The position numbers and the translations under genes were made by a program. The notes under the pieces were generated by a model that worked only from the letters and a program-made list of their open reading frames with translations, searched no databases and was not told where the DNA came from. A DNA stretch of 64,000 bases from positions 30,519 through 94,518 of the forward strand of contig CAYUUX010000002.1 of assembly GCA_964448085.1 (NCBI GenBank), in the 5' to 3' direction. Of the stretch, positions 43,435-54,370 are shown one piece after another; position 1 is the stretch's first letter, and each line of letters starts with the position of its first letter. The stretch comes from an uncultured Gammaproteobacteria bacterium. Lineage in GTDB: Bacteria; Patescibacteriota; Microgenomatia; UBA10105; UBA927.

Positions 43435-43890
43435 TTATGCAACTTTCGGGGATATCACGAGTTTTCTCTCTTGCCCCAGTCCGGTTGATTCGGTCGATAC
43501 GCGATCATCTCCCTGGAGTGTGAGATGTATGACTCTTCGTTCAGCGGATGAAAGGTGTGCCAATTCCACTGGTCTGCCAGAAGAAATTGCTCTTTCTGCT
43601 GCGCGTTGCGCCATATACATAAGCGCTTCTTCACGTTTTTCTCGATAATCGCCGACGTTAACATACACTCGTTGCCACGCGCCAAGTTGTTTGGAAACGA
43701 TCATTCCTAAAAGCATCTGAAAGCTTTCCAATGTTTTACCATGAAATCCTATGAGAAGTCCTGTTTCTTCTGTATTGATGTTCACTCTATATGCTCCCGA
43801 TTCATCGATGTCTACAGAAACCGTACTGATGATGCCGATGCGCTCCAGAAGGTTTTCAGCTATTTCTTTAATTGTTGTTATTGGATCCAT
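43435..43890 (-). CDS. jag: RNA-binding protein Jag/KhpB (KH + R3H domains)
   Basis: MDPITTIKEIAENLLERIGI...GLLIGFHGKTLESFQ (KH) and RVIHLTL (R3H). In the conserved position after yidC. Start trimmed to the internal Met. Confidence 0.75.
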   Translation of the reverse strand: MDPITTIKEIAENLLERIGIISTVSVDIDESGAYRVNINTEETGLLIGFHGKTLESFQMLLGMIVSKQLGAWQRVYVNVGDYREKREEALMYMAQRAAERAISSGRPVELAHLSSAERRVIHLTLQGDDRVSTESTGLGQERKLVISPKVA

Positions 43891-43891
43891 A

Positions 43892-44683
43892 TTATTTTCC
43901 TTTGTTAATTTGTAACTGCTGCATGATACCAAAAAGACCAAAGATATTCCAATATAGTGCGAGGCCAACAGGAAGCTGTAGTGCAAAGAACCCAAACATG
44001 ATTGGCGTAATAAACATCATTTGTTTCTGCATATCTGCCATTGTGTCCTGTTTCTTGTCCTTGTCGGTTTCTTGAGTTTTGACGGCAACAGCTGTGGTTT
44101 TTGGTGACATGAGTTTTGTTTGCCACAATTGAAGTCCTCCTGTAATGATCGGTATCATGAGAAGCCACCAGCCGTATTGTTGCCATTCTGCGGGTTTTAT
44201 CGCCAGGTTCGTTCCCAAAAAATGAATATCGAAATTTTGCACTTTCAAAAACGGAGCGTAGACAATCGCATTGATATCTTCGAGAAGTTTTGTGCCGTTT
44301 CCATTTCCCAGTACCTGATAAAATACATTGTACAAAGCGATCAGTATTGGAAATTGAATAAGTGTTGGCAAACAACCAGCTGCGGGATTCACTCCGTGTT
44401 CTTTATAGAGGGCAAGTTGTGCCTGTTGGAGTGCTTGTTTGTCGTCTTTGTGTTTTGCACTTAAGGCATCCAAATGCGGTTTCATATCCGCCATTTTTTT
44501 TGCGCTTTTTAATTGAGCATTCATCAAAGGATAGAGGAGAATTCGAACCGTGATCGTGAGAAGAATAATTGCGAAACCAAGAGGTCCTGGAAGTTGCAGC
44601 CATTCGCAGAATTTATAAAATACCACAAGCAAATTTGTGATTGGCCATATCAATAATTGATTCCAGATCGTCGGATTTGTCAT
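43892..44683 (-). CDS. yidC: membrane protein insertase YidC (short form)
   Basis: 263 aa, 5 TM helices. Conserved YidC core (LLIWPITNLL...YPLMNAQLKS...GCLPTLIQFPILIALYNV). Confidence 0.8.
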   Translation of the reverse strand: MTNPTIWNQLLIWPITNLLVVFYKFCEWLQLPGPLGFAIILLTITVRILLYPLMNAQLKSAKKMADMKPHLDALSAKHKDDKQALQQAQLALYKEHGVNPAAGCLPTLIQFPILIALYNVFYQVLGNGNGTKLLEDINAIVYAPFLKVQNFDIHFLGTNLAIKPAEWQQYGWWLLMIPIITGGLQLWQTKLMSPKTTAVAVKTQETDKDKKQDTMADMQKQMMFITPIMFGFFALQLPVGLALYWNIFGLFGIMQQLQINKGK

Positions 44684-44925
44684 AGGTGTTTCGGTATCGG
44701 ATCAAAGCCTCCAGGGTTCCAAGGATGACACCGGATAAGACGCTTCAATCCCAACCGCAGTCCGGTCATTATACCATAGCGATCGATCGCTTGATACGTG
44801 TATTCGCTGCACGTTGGTGTAAAACGGCACACTTTATCCGTTATCCACAGTGTCCGTGCAAGTCCTGTGTCAAGCGAAAGATATTTTTGATAGAAGCGGA
44901 TTGCCTTTAACAACGCCTTTTTCAT
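44680..44925 (-). CDS. yidD: membrane protein insertion efficiency factor YidD
   Basis: 81 aa. CRFTPTCSEYTYQAI...RLIRCHPW matches the YidD/haemolytic-domain signature. Confidence 0.85.
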   Translation of the reverse strand: MKKALLKAIRFYQKYLSLDTGLARTLWITDKVCRFTPTCSEYTYQAIDRYGIMTGLRLGLKRLIRCHPWNPGGFDPIPKHL

Positions 44926-45266
44926 ATATTATCACCGCTTCTTCTCTTAAGCATTAGCGTAAGCTCTCTGAGAATATCAGACGTTTGTGTTTCTTGTATG
45001 TCTTTTTGAACAAACAAGATCAGATCCATGCTGCCAGAAGGATGTGATTGCAGCATCTGCATAAAGGCGGCATGGATTTTGCGTTTTATCCGGTTTCTTC
45101 CAACTGCTGTTTTTGCAACTTTCTTTCCTACGATTACCGCCATTTTGGTTTCTTTATTGTGCGTTGGAAGGAACTTGCAACTGAACTGATGTGTGAGCAT
45201 ACGGCTACCAGTTTTTTTTATGCGTGCAATATCTTGAGAAGACAACCTGTATCTTTGTGGAAGCAT
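44922..45266 (-). CDS. rnpA: ribonuclease P protein component
   Basis: 114 aa, basic. VIVGKKVAKTAVGRNRIKRKIH is the RnpA RNR motif. Conserved position between rpmH and yidD. Confidence 0.75.
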   Translation of the reverse strand: MLPQRYRLSSQDIARIKKTGSRMLTHQFSCKFLPTHNKETKMAVIVGKKVAKTAVGRNRIKRKIHAAFMQMLQSHPSGSMDLILFVQKDIQETQTSDILRELTLMLKRRSGDNI

Positions 45267-45309
45267 GATCGTATTATACCAACACCGTTTCGAAGATTGT
45301 ATAAAGCGC

Positions 45310-45450
45310 TTATACCGTCAGAATTTTTCTTCCGATAGCGCGACGGCGCTTGAGTACTCGACGTCCACCTTTGGTGCTCATCCGCTTTCGAAATCCATGC
45401 GTACGTGCACGTTTTATTTTGCTTGGTTGATAGACACGCTTTGTTGCCAT
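45310..45450 (-). CDS. rpmH: 50S ribosomal protein L34
   Basis: [46 protein letters not shown] (46 aa) is near-identical to the bacterial L34 consensus. Confidence 0.9.
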
Positions 45451-45515
45451 AGTCGGATTATTATACTGAACATTTCTTTGTTTTTCAATACGACGTATAT
45501 GGAAAATGATACAAT

Positions 45516-46598
45516 ATGGCCATGCGACTCGGCGCATTACACCTGACATTTTTCAGGAATTACAAAAAACGCACATTCTCATTTGACGCACCAATTGTCC
45601 TTTTTGTTGGGGAAAACACCATAGGCAAAACGAATATTTTAGAAGCGATTTCGGTGCTTTCCGTCGGAAAGAGCTTTCGTGCACAGAAGGACAGTGATAT
45701 GGTTTTTTGGGGAAGCGAAGTGGGGCGCGTGCGGGGAGAGATTGTACGGGTCGTCGACAATACACAGGATGTTCTTTTATTGGAAATTGTCCTGACGACA
45801 GGATCGGTTGGAGGTCGCAAGACACACGTTAAAAAATATCTGGTAAATGGCGTAGCGCGCAGACAGGTCGATTTTATTGGGAATTTTCGTTCAGTCCTTT
45901 TTTCTCCTACGGACTTAGAATTGGTCACAGACAGTCCGAGCGTACGACGGGAATTTCTTAACGGTGTTTTGGTGCAGACGGATCGGGAGTATCGGAGAAG
46001 TATGTATTCCTATGAACGGGGATTGCGGCAGCGCAACTCTTTATTGGATCGTATCCATGAGGGAAGCGCGTCACCATCACAGCTTCTTTTTTGGGATCAT
46101 CTACTGATTAAAACCGGTGCGTATATTACGCAAACTCGCGAGTCTTTTATCGACTACATTAACAAGACAGCAAAAGACGATCTTTCATATAAACTTGTGT
46201 ATGATCCGAGCATCATATCGGAGACGCGTTTGGCACAATACGCTCAAGAGGAAATTGCCGCGAAGACCACTTTAATTGGTCCACAACGAGATGACTTCCG
46301 TTTTGAAAAATTGGGACGGGGGAGCACATCCATTGATATATCCCGTTTTGGATCACGCGGCGAGCAACGGCTTGCGATTCTTTGGATTAAGCGGGCGGAG
46401 CTTGCATACATAGAAAAACAAACGGGAGAACGCCCCGTGTTGCTCCTTGATGATATTTTTTCGGAACTGGACGATAAAGGAAAACATATTGTTCTTGACA
46501 CCATTACAAAACAGCAAACCATTATTACTTCGGCGGAAGACGACACGCAACGTCTTTTGGAAAAGACACACGAAGCACAGACCATTCACTTACCATAA
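45516..46598 (+). CDS. recF: DNA replication and repair protein RecF
   Basis: 360 aa. N-terminal Walker [17 protein letters not shown]-terminal SMC-like signature and Walker [12 protein letters not shown]. Confidence 0.85.
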
Positions 46599-46624: not shown

Positions 46625-47413
46625 ATGTTTCATATTCGCGACACCATTCAGCTCCCCAACCCCACATCCCATAAAGGGCAGAACGGAAGGTTGCTTATCA
46701 TCGGAGGATCCGCGTTGTTCCATTCGGCAAGCATGTGGTCGTTGACTGTTGCGTCGCGAATCGTTGACCTTGTGCATTATTCGTCTATACCGGAAAACAA
46801 CAAGTTGATACAAAAAGCAAAAGAAGAATTTAGGAACTGTATTGTTGTTGGAAGGGAAGACATTGATGCATATATACAGGAGGATGACTGTATCCTCATC
46901 GGTCCCGGGATGACCAGAAGTGAAGAAACCGCCAGTCTTACCAACATTCTTGTGTCTTCGTATCCAAAAAAACGATGGGTCATTGATGCGGGGGCGTTGC
47001 AAATGATTGATCCACATCGTATCCCCCACGGATCAATTTTAACTCCACACCACAAGGAATTTGCATACCTGCAGGAGAAGACAACTGATGGTATCACGCC
47101 GGAATTGTTTGCCAAACAGTATCAGTGCATCATTGTCCAAAAGGGGACGGTGGATATTGTAACAAATGGAGAAGTTACGGAGCATATTTCTGGTGGGAAC
47201 GCCGGCATGACAAAGGGAGGGACCGGTGACGTATTATCAGGACTCATTGCCGCACTGGCAACAACCAATGCACCGTTTGCTGCAGCATGTGCCGGTTCGT
47301 ATATTAACAAACAAGCGGGGGATGATTTATATGTTCGTGTCGGGCCCTTTTATAATGCTACGGATCTTGCAAACCAAATACCACTTACCATGAAGCGATT
47401 GTTCGTCCCTTAG
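46625..47413 (+). CDS. nnrD: ADP/ATP-dependent NAD(P)H-hydrate dehydratase (YjeF C-terminal domain only)
   Basis: GQNGRLLIIGGSALFHSASMW and GGNAGMTKGGTGDVLSGLIAAL carbohydrate-kinase-fold motifs. 262 aa with no epimerase half. Confidence 0.75.
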   Translation: MFHIRDTIQLPNPTSHKGQNGRLLIIGGSALFHSASMWSLTVASRIVDLVHYSSIPENNKLIQKAKEEFRNCIVVGREDIDAYIQEDDCILIGPGMTRSEETASLTNILVSSYPKKRWVIDAGALQMIDPHRIPHGSILTPHHKEFAYLQEKTTDGITPELFAKQYQCIIVQKGTVDIVTNGEVTEHISGGNAGMTKGGTGDVLSGLIAALATTNAPFAAACAGSYINKQAGDDLYVRVGPFYNATDLANQIPLTMKRLFVP

Positions 47414-48193: not shown

Positions 48194-48478
48194 CTACTTT
48201 TGAAATTTTTTGTCTACCTTCATCAGAAGATAGGTTACAAGTACCGCAAGCACAGTTACGACAATTGCGTAGATCGCAAGGGAGACGATGACACTTCCTT
48301 TTGGGACAAACGGTTTTATATACGTATTTACTATTTCTTCGATGAAGGAATTCCACGCAAGCGCTGCGACCAAACCGAAGGCAGCCGTGGACAGTGCTAT
48401 CATCTGTTTGAGCATCGCTCGAGCCATCCCTTTGGATTGTTTTTTGGCTTCCATACCGCTATTATATACTATAGACAT
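48194..48478 (-). CDS. small two-TM membrane protein
   Basis: 94 aa with two hydrophobic helices. Ends 1 nt before the fic start on the opposite strand. Confidence 0.35.
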   Translation of the reverse strand: MSIVYNSGMEAKKQSKGMARAMLKQMIALSTAAFGLVAALAWNSFIEEIVNTYIKPFVPKGSVIVSLAIYAIVVTVLAVLVTYLLMKVDKKFQK

Positions 48479-49522
48479 ATGTACACTCCAACTTTCTCAA
48501 TCACCAATAAAATCCTGAAATATATTGGTATCATAGAGGCGGCAAAGGAAGTGATTGAGAATGCTCCGTTAGTACCAGCGTGGGAGGCAAAATTTCGTGA
48601 AGAAGCGATCGTTCGAACAGTGCACCATGGTACGCACATTGAAGGAAATGAGCTCAATTTTACGGAAGCGGAAAAAGTATTGGCAGGAGCGAAAATTGTG
48701 GGTCGGGACAGAGATATTCAGGAGGTCTTGAATTATCGGAACGTGTTGAAGTTTATTGAGACTTTTTCAGGAGAAACAATATCGGACGAAACCATCAAAC
48801 ATGTCCATTCACTTGTTGCCGACAGAATTCTTCCCGATGCTGTGGTTGGTGAGTTTCGGAAATCGCAAGTGGTCGTGAAAAACAGTCAAACGGGAGAAAT
48901 TACCTTCCGTCCTCCACCAGCAGTTGAAGTACCATTTTTGATTTCCAATTTCCTGTTGTGGATGAATAACGCCAAGCCGGATGAAGTGCATCCCGCGATA
49001 AAAGCGGGGATAACACATTATGAATTGGTCCGTATCCATCCATTCTTAGATGGGAACGGGAGGGTTGCGCGCGCGATTGCAACGTTAGCGCTTTTCAGAG
49101 ATGGGTACGACATTAAGCGTTTTTTTTCGCTTGAAGAATACTATGACCGTGAACCGGTAAATTACTATGCGGCGTTGCAAAGTGTTGTAAACGAGAATGG
49201 TAACTTGACACACTGGTTGGAATATTTTTCAGAAGGTCTTGCAATAGAACTTACGCGTATTAAAGAAAAGGTGAAATCGCTTTCTACTGATTTAAAAATA
49301 AAAAAGCATTTGGGCGGTCATCAAATGGCCCTTTCCGAAAGGCAAATTAAGATTGTCGAATTTATTCAGGAAAACGGGTTTTTACAAAACAAAGCATTTT
49401 TTGAGTTGTTCCCCATGATTTCCGAAGATACCGTGCTTCGTGAAATAAAGGATTTGATGAAAAAAGGGATTATTCAAAAACAAGGATCGACGAAGGGTGT
49501 GCGATACGTATTGAAAAGTTAA
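48479..49522 (+). CDS. fic: Fic family protein (AMPylase-type, Fido fold) with C-terminal winged-helix domain
   Basis: Canonical Fic motif HPFLDGNGRVARA. Upstream THIEGNELN segment. C-terminal wHTH-like region (RQIKIVEFIQENGFLQNKAFFELF). ORF-track start trimmed to MYTPTF at 48479. Confidence 0.85.
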   Translation: MYTPTFSITNKILKYIGIIEAAKEVIENAPLVPAWEAKFREEAIVRTVHHGTHIEGNELNFTEAEKVLAGAKIVGRDRDIQEVLNYRNVLKFIETFSGETISDETIKHVHSLVADRILPDAVVGEFRKSQVVVKNSQTGEITFRPPPAVEVPFLISNFLLWMNNAKPDEVHPAIKAGITHYELVRIHPFLDGNGRVARAIATLALFRDGYDIKRFFSLEEYYDREPVNYYAALQSVVNENGNLTHWLEYFSEGLAIELTRIKEKVKSLSTDLKIKKHLGGHQMALSERQIKIVEFIQENGFLQNKAFFELFPMISEDTVLREIKDLMKKGIIQKQGSTKGVRYVLKS

Positions 49523-49530
49523 TTGGATCA

Positions 49531-51258
49531 ATGGTATTTTCCACGCTTGCTACCTATTTTCAAAAACTCGAGAACACGCCGTCACGCATCACGATGACGG
49601 AGATACTTGCTGATCTTTTTTCATCCGCTTCCACAACGGAAATCGGTGAAATTTGTTTTCTTCTTCAAGGGCGGGTTGCGCCGCTTTTCGAACCCGTGGA
49701 GTTTGGTGTCGCTGACAAGCTTATGATTCGTGCCATTACCAGTGCATATTCTTTAAAAGAGGCGCAGGTTATTGCTCTTTTTAAAAAATATGGCGATCTC
49801 GGCATTACTGCGGAAACAATTGCTAAAGAGAAACACCCTTCCGACAAACATACGAGCACAAGCGTACATTCGGTGTTTATAAAACTCCAACAATTGGCCG
49901 GTGAAAAAGGAGCAGGATCTCAAGAACGAAAGAATGCCATTCTTTCCGAACTTTTGTCCGCTTGCGACCCATTATCCGCACGATATCTGGTTCGAATTCC
50001 TTTGGATAAATTACGGCTCGGATTTTCAGACATGACGATGCTTGACGCGTTGTCATGGATGATCACGAAAGACAAATCCAACCGCAGTGCTTTTGAAGCA
50101 GCATATAACGTACGGCCGGATTTGTCCTTTATTGCTACGCTCATCAAAACGCGTGGGCTAGCAGGGGTTTCAGGTATATCGACAAAGGTCGGAGCGCCGA
50201 TTCTTGCAGCATTGTGTCAACGACTGCCCAATGCAAAGGAAATGATTGAAAAGATGGGAGAAGTAGACGTGGAGCCGAAATACGACGGTGTTCGGACACA
50301 GATTCATTTTATAAAACACCCCTCATGGGTGCAAAGCTACTCCCGAAACCTTGAAAACACAACTGCTATGTATCCCGAATTAACCCACATTGCATCCCAA
50401 ATTGATGCCGACGAAGTGATTTTGGATAGCGAAGCGGTGGGGTACGATGAAATCCATAAGAGAGTTATTCCCTTCCAAGAAACCGTTACGAGAAAACGCA
50501 AATACGGTATCCGCGAAGCAAGTGCTACGGTACCGCTTCGCTTTTTTGTCTTTGATATTCTTTCAAAAAACGGGAAAGATCTCATGGGCACGCCGTTGTC
50601 CAAACGAAGAGTAATTTTGGAAAAAACGATACGAACGGGTCGCATTCTTTCTCTTTCACCACACATCGTAACTTCGGATATCGCGACGCTTCGGGAATAT
50701 CAAAAAGAACAAATAGCATTAGGGCTTGAGGGTGTCGTTGTAAAAAAATGGGACAGTCATTATGAGCCTGGTCGTAGAGGCTATACGTGGGTGAAGTTTA
50801 AAGAGGAGGGGAAGGTTGGGAAGCTTGCCGATACCATTGACTGCGTGGTGATGGGGTATTACAAAGGAGAGGGGAAACGGGCAGACTTTGGCATCGGAGC
50901 GTTTCTTGTTGGGGTTTTGGATAAGGAAAATTTTGTGACGGTAACAAAAATCGGAACAGGTGTTTCGGACGAATTATGGAAAATGCTTGCTAAACGGTTT
51001 GCCAAGGAACGTATGGCGCAAAAACCATCCATGTATGGCGATGTTGAAAAGAGTTTGACCCCTGACGTTTGGGTTCAGCCAACCACCGTTGTTGAAATAG
51101 CGGCAGATGACATCACGAAGTCGCCGATTCATAAGGCTGGATACGCGTTGCGATTTCCTAGGTTGGTGCGTATTCGAGAAGATAAATCCATACACGCCAT
51201 TACGTCGACCAAAGAACTACAAACAATGTATAGTAATCAACAGTCCATACGATTATGA
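49531..51258 (+). CDS. lig: ATP-dependent DNA ligase (archaeal/eukaryotic type, N-terminal DNA-binding domain + adenylation + OB)
   Basis: 575 aa. Motif I EPKYDGVR (KxDG), motif III/IV (EGVVVKK) and motif V regions. Begins 8 nt after fic. Confidence 0.85.
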   Translation: MVFSTLATYFQKLENTPSRITMTEILADLFSSASTTEIGEICFLLQGRVAPLFEPVEFGVADKLMIRAITSAYSLKEAQVIALFKKYGDLGITAETIAKEKHPSDKHTSTSVHSVFIKLQQLAGEKGAGSQERKNAILSELLSACDPLSARYLVRIPLDKLRLGFSDMTMLDALSWMITKDKSNRSAFEAAYNVRPDLSFIATLIKTRGLAGVSGISTKVGAPILAALCQRLPNAKEMIEKMGEVDVEPKYDGVRTQIHFIKHPSWVQSYSRNLENTTAMYPELTHIASQIDADEVILDSEAVGYDEIHKRVIPFQETVTRKRKYGIREASATVPLRFFVFDILSKNGKDLMGTPLSKRRVILEKTIRTGRILSLSPHIVTSDIATLREYQKEQIALGLEGVVVKKWDSHYEPGRRGYTWVKFKEEGKVGKLADTIDCVVMGYYKGEGKRADFGIGAFLVGVLDKENFVTVTKIGTGVSDELWKMLAKRFAKERMAQKPSMYGDVEKSLTPDVWVQPTTVVEIAADDITKSPIHKAGYALRFPRLVRIREDKSIHAITSTKELQTMYSNQQSIRL

Positions 51259-52193
51259 TTGCGTTGTACATTCTCGCATTTATCCTTTCCGGCGTTGTAC
51301 TTGCTGTGTGTGCTAATTGGGTTGTTCGTTCTGTTTCCTATTTTTCTCAGGCGCTTCACGTTAAAAGTTTTCTCTTGGGATTTTTGCTTCTGGGTGTTGC
51401 GACGACGATTCCCGAGATGTTTGTTGCATATCAGTCGGTGCACGATGGTGTTCCCCAATTGGCCGTCGGGAACTTGCTTGGTGGATCCATTCTCCTTTTA
51501 TCCTTTGTGATGGGAACGAGCGCAATTTTTCTCAAACGGATTGTGTTGGATCACGGGATGAGAACCATGGATATCGGCATTTCGTCTTTGGTGGTTTTTG
51601 CCCCCGCTATTATGTTGTGGGATGGCACTCTATCACGTGCGGAGGGTGCACTTCTTGTTATCGTCTACCTTATTCATATTTTTCTTATCAACAAGGAACA
51701 ACAATTGGTCGGCCATATCGAAGAGCACGCACACCACGTCAAACATGGAGGCCACGCAATTTTTTTGAGCATCGTTGGGCTTGCAGGTATGGCGATTGCT
51801 TCGCGATCAATAGTAACGATTGGGGAGCACGTAGTCCAATTGGTTCACATGCCGACATTTGTTGTCGGATTGTTTTTGATAACATTTGGAACAAACCTTC
51901 CAGAAATCTCTCTTGTGGTTGAGGCGGTAATCAAAAAAAAGCGTGATATTGCATTCGGGGATATTCTTGGATCCAGCGTTATCAATACGCCGATATTGGG
52001 TATTATTGGTTTGTTAGCTCCGTTTACCATTGCCGATCATGAACGTATACGCGTTACCCTTCTGTTACTGGCGCTCGTTGCACTCTTTTTTTATTGGGCG
52101 GCGTCCAGCAAACGCGATGTCACGCGCAAAGAAGGATTTGTGTTACTGGTGGTGTACGGGTCATTTGTGTTGTTTGAAATGATGCATATATAG
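51255..52193 (+). CDS. Ca2+/cation antiporter, CaCA family (YrbG-like sodium/calcium exchanger)
   Basis: 312 aa, about 10 TM helices. Duplicated alpha-repeat motifs (GNLLGGSILLL ... GDILGSSVINT). Confidence 0.7.
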   Translation: MIALYILAFILSGVVLAVCANWVVRSVSYFSQALHVKSFLLGFLLLGVATTIPEMFVAYQSVHDGVPQLAVGNLLGGSILLLSFVMGTSAIFLKRIVLDHGMRTMDIGISSLVVFAPAIMLWDGTLSRAEGALLVIVYLIHIFLINKEQQLVGHIEEHAHHVKHGGHAIFLSIVGLAGMAIASRSIVTIGEHVVQLVHMPTFVVGLFLITFGTNLPEISLVVEAVIKKKRDIAFGDILGSSVINTPILGIIGLLAPFTIADHERIRVTLLLLALVALFFYWAASSKRDVTRKEGFVLLVVYGSFVLFEMMHI

Positions 52194-52200
52194 CCGTATA

Positions 52201-53037
52201 ATGCGTCAAGCTATGGGAAAACCATTTATTTCCGTTATCATCCCGGCATTAAATGAAGAAAAATTCATCGCAGGACTTCTTTCGAGTTTAAGTACGCAAC
52301 ATAGTCGAGATTTCGAAGTAATCGTGGTGGACGGTCGCTCCAAGGATAAAACCGTTGAGGTAGCGCGCAGATTTGCATCCAAGCTTCCCTCTCTTTCCGT
52401 CATTGTGGCGGATCATGCAAGTTTACCGTTTCAGCGAAATATTGGGGCAGATGCTGCACGGGGGCAATGGCTGGTTTTTATTGATGCGGATGTTGTCTTG
52501 TATAGCTATTCTCTCGAGCGTCTGCACGCATACTTACGTGCTTCGGACAGTTCCTTTGTTACTTCATGGTTTAGTCCAGATAGCGAGGATATCAATGATG
52601 TCCGTCTAACGCTGTTTGCCATCTTTTTCTATGAGTTATCAAAAAATTTGAAGCGCGCAATTTCTCCCGGTCCTTTTACCGTTGTCCAACGAGACGCATT
52701 TGATATTGTTGGAGGATATGATGTGGAACATCCATTTTTGGAGGATCAGGACTTTTCCCAACGGATGGCAAAAGCTGGGTATACACTTTCGATTGTTCGC
52801 GAATCCCTCTATATTTGGTCGCTTCGAAGATACAGAAAAGAAGGGACGAGGAAGGTATTTCAGGCCTATACAAAAGCGTTATTACCTATTCTTTTTACAA
52901 AGACGGTACCAAAGAATATGAAGGGATACCAAATGGGTGGTCATGTATTTTCTAAAAAGAAAAAGAATGTGCACACGCCCTTCATTAAACAGACAGAGCG
53001 TAAAATGAAGCAGTTGATGCAGGATATATTTGAATAG
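52201..53037 (+). CDS. glycosyltransferase family 2
   Basis: ISVIIPALNEEKFI...FEVIVVDGRSKDKT...FIDADV is a GT2 signature. Confidence 0.75.
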   Translation: MRQAMGKPFISVIIPALNEEKFIAGLLSSLSTQHSRDFEVIVVDGRSKDKTVEVARRFASKLPSLSVIVADHASLPFQRNIGADAARGQWLVFIDADVVLYSYSLERLHAYLRASDSSFVTSWFSPDSEDINDVRLTLFAIFFYELSKNLKRAISPGPFTVVQRDAFDIVGGYDVEHPFLEDQDFSQRMAKAGYTLSIVRESLYIWSLRRYRKEGTRKVFQAYTKALLPILFTKTVPKNMKGYQMGGHVFSKKKKNVHTPFIKQTERKMKQLMQDIFE

Positions 53038-54370
53038 TATGCAGATGCTTGCCGATCTTCATATCCACTCGCGATTTTCCCGTGCGGTTTCCCGGGAGAT
53101 GACCATTCCCACCATAGCAACATGGGCAAAGAAAAAAGGTATTGGCTTAGTTGCAACAGGTGATTGGACACATCCGTTGTGGCTTAATGAAATCGAAAGT
53201 CAGTTAGAGGAAACAGGAGAAGGTTTTTTGCACCTGCGGAAGCATAATGAAACTGACCATATTAGTCAGCCGTTGTTTCTTCTTTCAACCGAACTGTCTT
53301 GCATTTTTTCCCAGGGAGGCAAAACACGTCGGGTACATACTATGGTGTGGGTGCCAACCATTGCAAGCGCGCGTAAAATCAGTCAGGAAATAACGAAGCG
53401 AGGCGGTAATGTGCTTTCAGATGGCCGTCCAATCTTGGGTTTTTCATTGATACAACTTGCGGATCTTATCCTATCGACAGAACCGAATGCACTTATTGTG
53501 CCTGCACACATCTGGACTCCGTGGTTTTCGGTGTATGGCGCCATGGGAGGATTTTCCACTCTTGCGGAAGCCTTCGGTCCTTTTGCCAAGCATATTTATG
53601 CTGTTGAGACGGGATTGTCCAGTAGTCCTGATATGAATTGGCGGATACAAGAGCTGAAAACGCGATCTATTGTGTCGTTTTCAGATGCGCACAGTGCACC
53701 CAAATTAGGTCGTGAGGCAACGCTTTTTTCTTTGCCGAAAGCCACCTTTCCCATGCTTCGCGAGGCGTTGATGAACTACGCAAACGACCAGACAGAAGCC
53801 CATATTGTTTCCACGATGGAATTTTATCCCGAGGAAGGAAAATATCATTATACGGGACACCGGGACTGTCATGTGCGATTGACACCGAAGGACGCTGTTG
53901 CAAAAGGCGCCGTCTGTTCTGTGTGTGGAAAACCATTAACGCAAGGTGTGATGCAGCGCGTTGAAGAGCTTGCATCCATTGGGGAAACGGGAGCGTGGGA
54001 TATGAAAAATGGCGTACGGTGGAGAAAAAGCGCAGATGGAACCAGGCCGCCGTTTGTCATGCTGGTCCCGCTACAAGAGATAATCAGTGAAGCAATTGGA
54101 AGTCCTGTGACAAGTCCGAAGGTTGCAGTGCATTTTGAACGACTTACTAAGGAGCTTGGCGGAGAATTTTCTGTATTGCTTGACAAAACGATAGAGGATA
54201 TCGCGCGATATTCTACACCACAGATAGCAGACGGCATATGGAAAGTTCGATCTGGCGATATCGTCATTGACCCTGGATACGATGGAGTATTCGGGGTGGT
54301 GAAAATTTGGAAAAGCGATGCGGATAAGGCCCTGGTTTCTGCAACTGGGGAACAAATGGGAATTTTTTGA
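53030..54370 (+). CDS. PHP-domain phosphoesterase with C-terminal Zn-ribbon, endonuclease Q-like (COG1379 type)
   Basis: N-terminal ADLHIHSRFS PHP metal-binding motif, further His/Asp positions (VPAHIWTPW, SFSDAHS) and a CSVCGKP Zn-ribbon near the C-terminus. 446 aa matches EndoQ-family length. Confidence 0.55.
   Translation: MNSMQMLADLHIHSRFSRAVSREMTIPTIATWAKKKGIGLVATGDWTHPLWLNEIESQLEETGEGFLHLRKHNETDHISQPLFLLSTELSCIFSQGGKTRRVHTMVWVPTIASARKISQEITKRGGNVLSDGRPILGFSLIQLADLILSTEPNALIVPAHIWTPWFSVYGAMGGFSTLAEAFGPFAKHIYAVETGLSSSPDMNWRIQELKTRSIVSFSDAHSAPKLGREATLFSLPKATFPMLREALMNYANDQTEAHIVSTMEFYPEEGKYHYTGHRDCHVRLTPKDAVAKGAVCSVCGKPLTQGVMQRVEELASIGETGAWDMKNGVRWRKSADGTRPPFVMLVPLQEIISEAIGSPVTSPKVAVHFERLTKELGGEFSVLLDKTIEDIARYSTPQIADGIWKVRSGDIVIDPGYDGVFGVVKIWKSDADKALVSATGEQMGIF

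Follow-up and report, generated by a model that had tools for sequence, protein, structure and literature searches.

A lineage-wide gene pair in Microgenomates encoding a class II-type Fic protein with a winged helix and an archaeal-type ATP-dependent DNA ligase

The question raised by this locus is whether a Fic protein, predicted to add or remove AMP, and a DNA ligase, which likewise works through an AMP intermediate, are encoded side by side as parts of one functional unit or have only been inherited as neighbors. In the window, meaning the whole 64-kb stretch of contig CAYUUX010000002.1 that was analyzed, a gene for a Fic protein with a C-terminal winged helix-turn-helix (wHTH) is followed on the same strand by a gene for an archaeal-type ATP-dependent ligase; they are called fic and lig here. 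Both products are members of known enzyme kinds, and both genes are intact, vertically inherited core genes of the Microgenomates, a group of the Candidate Phyla Radiation (CPR); the window itself derives from a Gottesmanbacteria-like member of that group. The lineage-wide pairing, a clade-specific variant of the Fic inhibitory motif and the core-gene behavior of Fic were not found described in the literature searched. It is proposed tentatively, by analogy with characterized Fic proteins, that this Fic could be functionally coupled to DNA metabolism, with the co-expressed ligase as the best candidate target.

The pairing was followed in three samples of loci. A scan of species-representative genomes with a Fic alignment returned 13 CPR loci, in which Fic identity was 52-80%, and 67 loci of other phyla, in which it was at most 39%. 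Fic was directly upstream of the ligase, on the same strand, in 12/12 CPR loci with enough downstream DNA, and none of the 67 loci from other phyla had a ligase within 10 kb of Fic. A metagenome scan with a ligase alignment added 80 further loci with ligase identities of 44-68%; with duplicates removed and at least 1.3 kb of upstream DNA present, Fic was directly upstream in 64 of 68 of these ligase-anchored loci. When the count was anchored on Fic instead, the ligase was no more than 700 nucleotides (nt) away in 73 of 78 non-redundant loci (94%) and somewhere in the locus in 78/78. The loci come from Gottesman-, Levy-, Chisholm- and Daviesbacteria, all of the Microgenomates group, and share the co-directional order recF-carbK-Fic-[small ORF]-Lig...EndoQ-DUF4870-Pth (ORF, open reading frame), within which Fic to Lig is the most stable adjacency of all gene pairs. 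The check that the first-pass annotation of this DNA, made from the letters alone, had set for itself, conservation of the adjacency in related genomes, thus came out in its favor. Five of the loci (L006, L007, L012, L015 and L016) are titled 'uncultured Gammaproteobacteria bacterium'; these labels look wrong because the loci carry the Microgenomates-type block, with Fic 52-77% identical. In L016 a frameshift or stop splits fic into two ORFs.

The distance between the two genes varies. Stop and start codons overlap in some relatives (L012, L013), others have a gap of 5-20 nt like the window, and gaps of about 190-250 nt are the most frequent. Such a gap contains a conserved ORF of 55-70 amino acids with two transmembrane segments in about 50 of 75 loci (for example MSPSDPQFLYMILVLPSLFGLTLVGEGLNK...; L004 11093-11278, L006 11062-11247). 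This small ORF matches no Pfam family, does not carry the Fic inhibitory motif, and is missing both from the window (49523-49530) and from about 19 further loci, all of which nevertheless keep Fic intact. It is reminiscent of the small gene that follows E. coli Sofic, although its product is a membrane protein.

The first gene encodes a class II-type Fic AMP-transferase/deAMPylase, as far as activity can be predicted from its sequence, with a DNA-binding winged helix. The protein belongs to the Fic superfamily (PF02661, E=1.5e-20, 74.3 bits against a cutoff of 24), and an identical copy is called on a public metagenome contig. Its catalytic motif, HPFLDGNGRVAR, satisfies the complete HxFx[D/E]GN[G/K]RxxR pattern, so it is canonical as first annotated. 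The wHTH named in that annotation is also borne out, by a weak Pfam match to a DeoR-type HTH at residues 288-334 and by a modelled winged helix (287-345) made of three helices and a beta-hairpin. The AlphaFold2 model built on a diverse alignment, with a predicted local distance difference test score (pLDDT) of 88.9, comprises an N-terminal helical part, the Fic core, a linker of low pLDDT (274-282) and the winged helix; it replaced a first model built from near-identical sequences (pLDDT 70). Foldseek returned full-length matches to 4RGL, CbFic2 (8CIL), CccR (7XUX) and SoFic (3ZCN), and superposed the core on human FICD with a root-mean-square deviation of 2.3-3.0 A. By sequence, the nearest proteins of solved structure are Dde_2494 (4RGL) and human FICD (E about 1e-20 for each).

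The inhibitory motif departs from the class II pattern at one position. The first-pass annotation had read THIEGN as the motif [S/T]xxxE[G/N] with the Glu present and the spacing shifted. Alignment with FICD (T230-VAI-E234-GN) places E55 on the inhibitory E234, G56-N57 on G-N and Gly51 at the position of T230, so the Glu stands, in register, and the supposed shift is better called a substitution of Gly for S/T; the Thr of THIEGN is the residue next to that position. The strict motif is therefore not present (the sequence reads G51-THI-E55-G56), although the defining architecture of class II is: an intramolecular helix that precedes the Fic core, together with the Glu, here modelled at residues 33-53 ahead of E55. 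The whole segment from G51 to N57 is invariant in 29 close homologues. Among 71 ligase-linked Fic proteins the S/T position is Gly in all but four, which have Ala; 70/71 retain the inhibitory Glu, and departures from the catalytic motif are few and conservative. The nearest outside Fic clades, from unrelated phyla, have S or T at this position and no ligase (0/67), and no conserved neighbors were found for the S/T-type sister clade. Gly or Ala at the S/T position thus coincides exactly with linkage to the ligase. Motif calls on distant Fic representatives were made on the alignment, as regular expressions proved unreliable for them.

Fic is also the most conserved gene of the block. In the near bin its identity is 80%, compared with 61% for Lig, 57% for recF, 59% for EndoQ and 61% for Pth; in the far bin the means are 53% for Fic and 48% for Lig, and Fic identity exceeds Lig identity in 55 of 64 loci. 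The best 120 Fic clusters (clustered at 90% identity) are all 76-100% identical, and in them RTVHHGTHIEGN, the flap QVVVKNSQTGEITFRPPP, the catalytic loop and the wHTH are near-invariant. One Daviesbacteria subclade (P0249, P0391-P0398; L166 8001-9077) has a degenerate catalytic loop, HPFLNANSKTAQ, with flap and wHTH kept; judged by this loop it may be a pseudo-enzyme, and six genes separate its fic from lig.

The second gene encodes what the first-pass annotation said it did, a 575-amino-acid archaeal-type ATP-dependent ligase. The Pfam domains DNA_ligase_A_N, _M and _C match with E=2e-37, 1e-47 and 4e-22, TIGR00574 is matched with 375.8 bits against a cutoff of 217.8, and the closest solved relative is the Sulfolobus (S. 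solfataricus) enzyme 2HIV (5e-98), so that the protein is nearest to archaeal ligases. K250, D252, G253 and R255 of motif I, together with motifs III-VI, are invariant among relatives in ligase alignment A2. With its three domains, a KxDGxR motif I and the other nucleotidyltransferase motifs, the protein falls in the Lig1/LigB class; in the nomenclature of a 2020 review a ligase with DNA-binding, nucleotidyltransferase and oligonucleotide-binding-fold domains (DBD-NTase-OB) is LigB class (PMC7470946). According to the same review all bacteria studied replicate with NAD-dependent ligases, and many add ATP-dependent accessories, LigB-class ones among them (PMC7470946). To find such a ligase in a bacterium is thus by itself no surprise, and the earlier comment that use of an ATP-dependent ligase by a bacterial genome is notable is not supported. 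Characterized bacterial LigB genes lie in Lhr-MPE-Exo clusters (PMC7470946), whereas here Fic is upstream and EndoQ downstream, and no Lhr-MPE-exonuclease cluster was present in the window region or in related loci. LigD models, specific to the ligase of non-homologous end joining, matched partially and below threshold, and the ligase carries no extra domains. NAD-dependent LigA was not found among the long ORFs of the window, nor by tblastn with E. coli LigA as query in the window or the 168 fetched loci. The literature searched yielded nothing on ligases of Microgenomates. At the ligase C-terminus nothing like a beta-clamp-binding motif is conserved; the tails end in the usual [LM][YF]xxQ helix.

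Table 1. Features of the fic-lig locus and its surroundings, in window coordinates
Feature	Coordinates	Strand	Basis
recF	45516..46598	+	Pfam, synteny in relatives
carbK, NAD(P)HX dehydratase	46625..47413	+	Pfam, synteny in relatives
Small membrane-protein gene DUF5654, divergent, 94 codons	48194..48478	-	Pfam DUF5654 E=3.7e-18
fic, class II-type Fic (predicted (de)AMPylase) with C-terminal winged helix, 347 amino acids	48479..49522	+	Pfam, public gene calls, AlphaFold2 model, Foldseek
Inhibitory-helix variant G51-T-H-I-E55-G-N57, Gly for S/T of [S/T]xxxE[G/N]	48629..48649	+	FICD alignment
Fic catalytic motif HPFLDGNGRVAR, residues 187-198, catalytic His H187	49037..49072	+	read from sequence
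C-terminal wHTH, residues about 283-345, past flexible linker	49325..49513	+	weak Pfam HTH_DeoR (288-334), AlphaFold2 model
Spacer, fic stop to lig start, 8 nt, TTGGATCA	49523..49530	+	sequence
lig, three-domain (DBD-NTase-OB) ATP-dependent DNA ligase, LigB/archaeal type, 575 amino acids	49531..51258	+	Pfam, TIGR00574, PDB 2HIV
Ligase motif I EPKYDGVR, K250 catalytic Lys/adenylylation site	50272..50295	+	sequence
Na+/Ca2+ exchanger, start overlapping lig stop	51255..52193	+	Pfam; variable filler, only some relatives
GT2 glycosyltransferase	52201..53037	+	Pfam; variable filler, only some relatives
Endonuclease Q (EndoQ) homologue, 446 amino acids, TIGR00375 family	53030..54370	+	PDB, TIGR00375

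Judging by the layout in the window, fic and lig are probably co-transcribed. As the earlier annotation stated, 8 nt separate the two genes on the same strand (TAA at 49520-49522, spacer TTGGATCA, ATG at 49531). This spacer is too short for a terminator or promoter; a scan for both gave counts no higher than shuffled sequence, with nothing, terminator-like sites included, between fic and lig. No RNA family was matched by an Rfam scan of 44-56 kb of the window. The lig stop overlaps the ATG of the Na+/Ca2+ exchanger gene (ATGA, 51255-51258), so the array continues beyond 51258. The fic ORF is intact and starts at ATG 48479, as it does in the public calls of the identical protein and in all homologues. 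The start at 48194 given in the first-pass annotation is wrong, since 48194-48478 codes for the DUF5654 protein on the minus strand, and a 440-codon ORF from a TTG at 48200, considered as fic, is an artefact that overlaps this 94-codon minus-strand ORF. The start codon of the longest DUF5654 ORF and that of fic are back to back (CATATG, window 48476-48481), while the public DUF5654 call starts 8 codons further in and leaves a 24-nt gap; with the starts abutting or 24 nt apart, the fic promoter must lie inside coding sequence or further upstream.

Among characterized proteins, the working model for this Fic is CbFic2 of Coxiella burnetii (8CIL), a DNA-regulated enzyme with the same parts: a class II core, an N-terminal inhibitory helix and a C-terminal DeoR-type wHTH, superposing with a TM-score of about 0.6. 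CbFic2 both AMPylates and deAMPylates; its binding to DNA promotes dimerisation and a switch to deAMPylation, for which the inhibitory Glu is needed (PMC10628234). However, the two proteins share only about 21% identity, CbFic2 has a canonical TSAIEG motif and a DUF4172 N-terminal domain, and it is a secreted effector that acts on host histone H3, with no ligase neighbor and not a core housekeeping gene. FICD/HYPE shares the aligned inhibitory Glu, E234, which is the residue needed for deAMPylation, but it has tetratricopeptide repeats, a membrane anchor, BiP as target and no wHTH. SoFic/Sofic (Shewanella 3EQX/3ZCN, E. coli 9VJC) and CccR (7XUX) combine Fic and wHTH and match structurally, and the wHTH of CccR binds DNA; unlike the Fic of the window they have S or T where it has Gly, and they are sporadic defence or toxin genes, whereas it is fixed, lineage-wide and beside lig. 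Dde_2494 (4RGL) is an uncharacterized structural-genomics protein, and the flap of the window Fic is 2-7 residues longer than in the FICD and Dde_2494 matches. The class I pairs FicT/FicA (VbhT/VbhA) share the catalytic motif and regulation by an inhibitory Glu; here, however, the inhibitory helix is within the Fic chain, no small gene bearing the motif is present as an antitoxin, and the neighbors are the divergent DUF5654 gene and lig. The ligase resembles LigB-class bacterial and archaeal replicative ligases (2HIV) in its DBD-NTase-OB architecture and in having all nucleotidyltransferase motifs, from which autonomous nick sealing would be expected.

If the analogy with CbFic2 and FICD holds, the Fic protein would bind DNA through its wHTH, and the retained inhibitory Glu would make auto-inhibition or deAMPylation its default. 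Reversible AMPylation of a protein of DNA metabolism could then be switched by DNA binding or by altered oligomerization. The prime candidate would be the ligase expressed together with Fic, or some partner that works at nicks, and nick sealing would thereby be tuned during repair. Both the target and the direction of regulation are what we infer from this comparison. A more specific version is quite improbable: that DNA-bound Fic, in a Glu-dependent deAMPylase mode, might clear the ligase, or abortive 5'-adenylated nicks, of AMP in the manner of aprataxin, or might AMPylate the ligase to block futile resealing of nicks made by EndoQ.

Several points weigh against a functional coupling of Fic and ligase. 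In the library searched, no paper connecting Fic with a DNA ligase was found. GyrB and ParE, which are known endogenous targets of bacterial Fic proteins, are not ligases. The same is true of EF-Tu, the reported target of SoFic (bioRxiv 10.64898/2026.07.09.737422), and of FtsZ, which is AMPylated by CccR (PMC9755527). A Fic-ligase fusion was sought among the homologues, and the sole over-long one, P0144 (913 amino acids), is an intein-bearing ligase with no Fic domain. The association appears to have arisen once, in the Microgenomates, so the many loci count as one event. Pairs of the block with no evident functional link are also frequently adjacent (carbK to Fic in 85% of loci and EndoQ to DUF4870 in 81%, with lower values of 56% for recF to carbK and 58% for DUF4870 to Pth). 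In Daviesbacteria (4/4 loci) fic and lig are on the same strand but are split by 1-6 antisense genes over 1.2-3.8 kb, and most Fic proteins of these split loci are intact. Finally, Fic is absent within 5-6 kb in four to five ligase loci (L128/129, L138, L149/150 and probably L116).

Most of these points favor the explanation that only gene order has been conserved, with Fic a housekeeping (de)AMPylase whose target (EF-Tu, GyrB/ParE or FtsZ, for example) has nothing to do with ligation and whose co-transcription with lig means nothing functionally. The very high conservation of Fic would suit a highly conserved housekeeping target of this kind. However, even against this background the adjacency of Fic and Lig remains the most stable, the two share a locus wherever Fic was used as the anchor, distant members have overlapping stop and start codons, and the clade-specific change in the inhibitory motif goes together with linkage to the ligase. 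Conserved gene order of single origin, split in Daviesbacteria, makes the adjacency fit both a functional module and simple juxtaposition. The conserved order alone is thus a possibility held as tentatively as coupling itself, and the two are rated equal, whereas roles as a regulator only or in toxicity or defence are less likely, given the strong constraint on the catalytic machinery and the behavior of fic as a core gene of fixed position. The first-pass annotation had offered a regulatory or toxin-like module acting on DNA metabolism, or mere juxtaposition; the adjacency it relied on is conserved, comparison does not distinguish coupling from inherited order, and the toxin-like part is not supported.

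It is unlikely that the Fic-wHTH protein is mainly a transcription factor that regulates the fic-lig array, itself included, through an operator, with the Fic domain serving as nucleotide sensor or auto-modification switch. Such a role would agree with the near-invariance of the wHTH, with the Daviesbacteria subclade that has lost catalytic residues (HPFLNANSKTAQ) and keeps wHTH and flap, and with the structural match to CccR, whose HTH represses its own promoter and which autoregulates through palindromes (PMC9755527). However, a comparison of four loci turned up no palindromic operator common to the DNA ahead of fic, the DNA upstream of fic in the window is coding sequence of the divergent gene, and catalytic motif, flap and inhibitory Glu, which a pure repressor would not need, are strongly constrained in nearly all members. 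A SoFic-type toxin acting in anti-phage abortive infection, with the small ORF that follows fic in about 50 of 75 related loci as an AS1-like antitoxin and the ligase as a bystander, is very improbable: the protein does match the PADLOC SoFic model (E=1.1e-52, a broad model without curated cutoff), and the defence toxin Sofic of E. coli is followed by an antitoxin gene of 47 amino acids (PMC12249575), but the window protein scores 63.3 bits against a cutoff of 550 for the NCBIfam SoFic equivalog NF046030, its gene occurs once, in the same place throughout the lineage, and is better conserved than any other of the block, the opposite of sporadic, fast-evolving defence genes, no antitoxin gene accompanies it in the window, the small ORF of relatives is a two-transmembrane protein missing where Fic is intact, and there is no defence island or mobile-element context.

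Fic enzymes occur widely, yet the cellular targets of bacterial ones are mostly obscure, and the Fic-wHTH protein described here is a constrained core gene of a reduced-genome lineage with one obvious candidate partner. If Fic and ligase were coupled, DNA repair would be shown to involve control by AMPylation or the editing of ligation intermediates; if Fic acted on the adenylate chemistry of the ligase, this would be the first link of Fic-type AMP transfer to DNA ligation. These genomes also make it conceivable that a bacterial lineage relies on an archaeal-type ATP-dependent enzyme as its main ligase. If the two are uncoupled, the locus is ordinary conserved synteny.

The surroundings of the pair suggest a block with an archaeal-flavored DNA-repair character, with recF upstream and an EndoQ homologue downstream. 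The latter matches PfuEndoQ (5ZB8/7K30) with E about 1e-52 and TIGR00375 with E=5e-51, and it lies 0-6 kb downstream of lig in 27 of 40 loci with enough flank. The G+C content is even throughout the region. Just upstream of the block and divergent from recF is an rpmH-rnpA-yidD-yidC-jag (KH/R3H) cluster (window 43435-45549, minus strand). Neither dnaA nor dnaN was seen in the stretch around it; clusters of this type are usually near the replication origin. Some relatives (L008, L010) have fic immediately after carbK, in the same orientation. The inserts between fic and lig in Daviesbacteria (L164 9080-10208, L168 8074-9267 and L166 9074-12881) consist of an antisense GGDEF (diguanylate cyclase) gene and small ORFs, and one of them also has a Crp-type regulator. 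In the over-long CPR ligase P0144 the intein sits right after the adenylylation motif, with the junctions EPKFDGVR/CIGG...HNC/QIHY.

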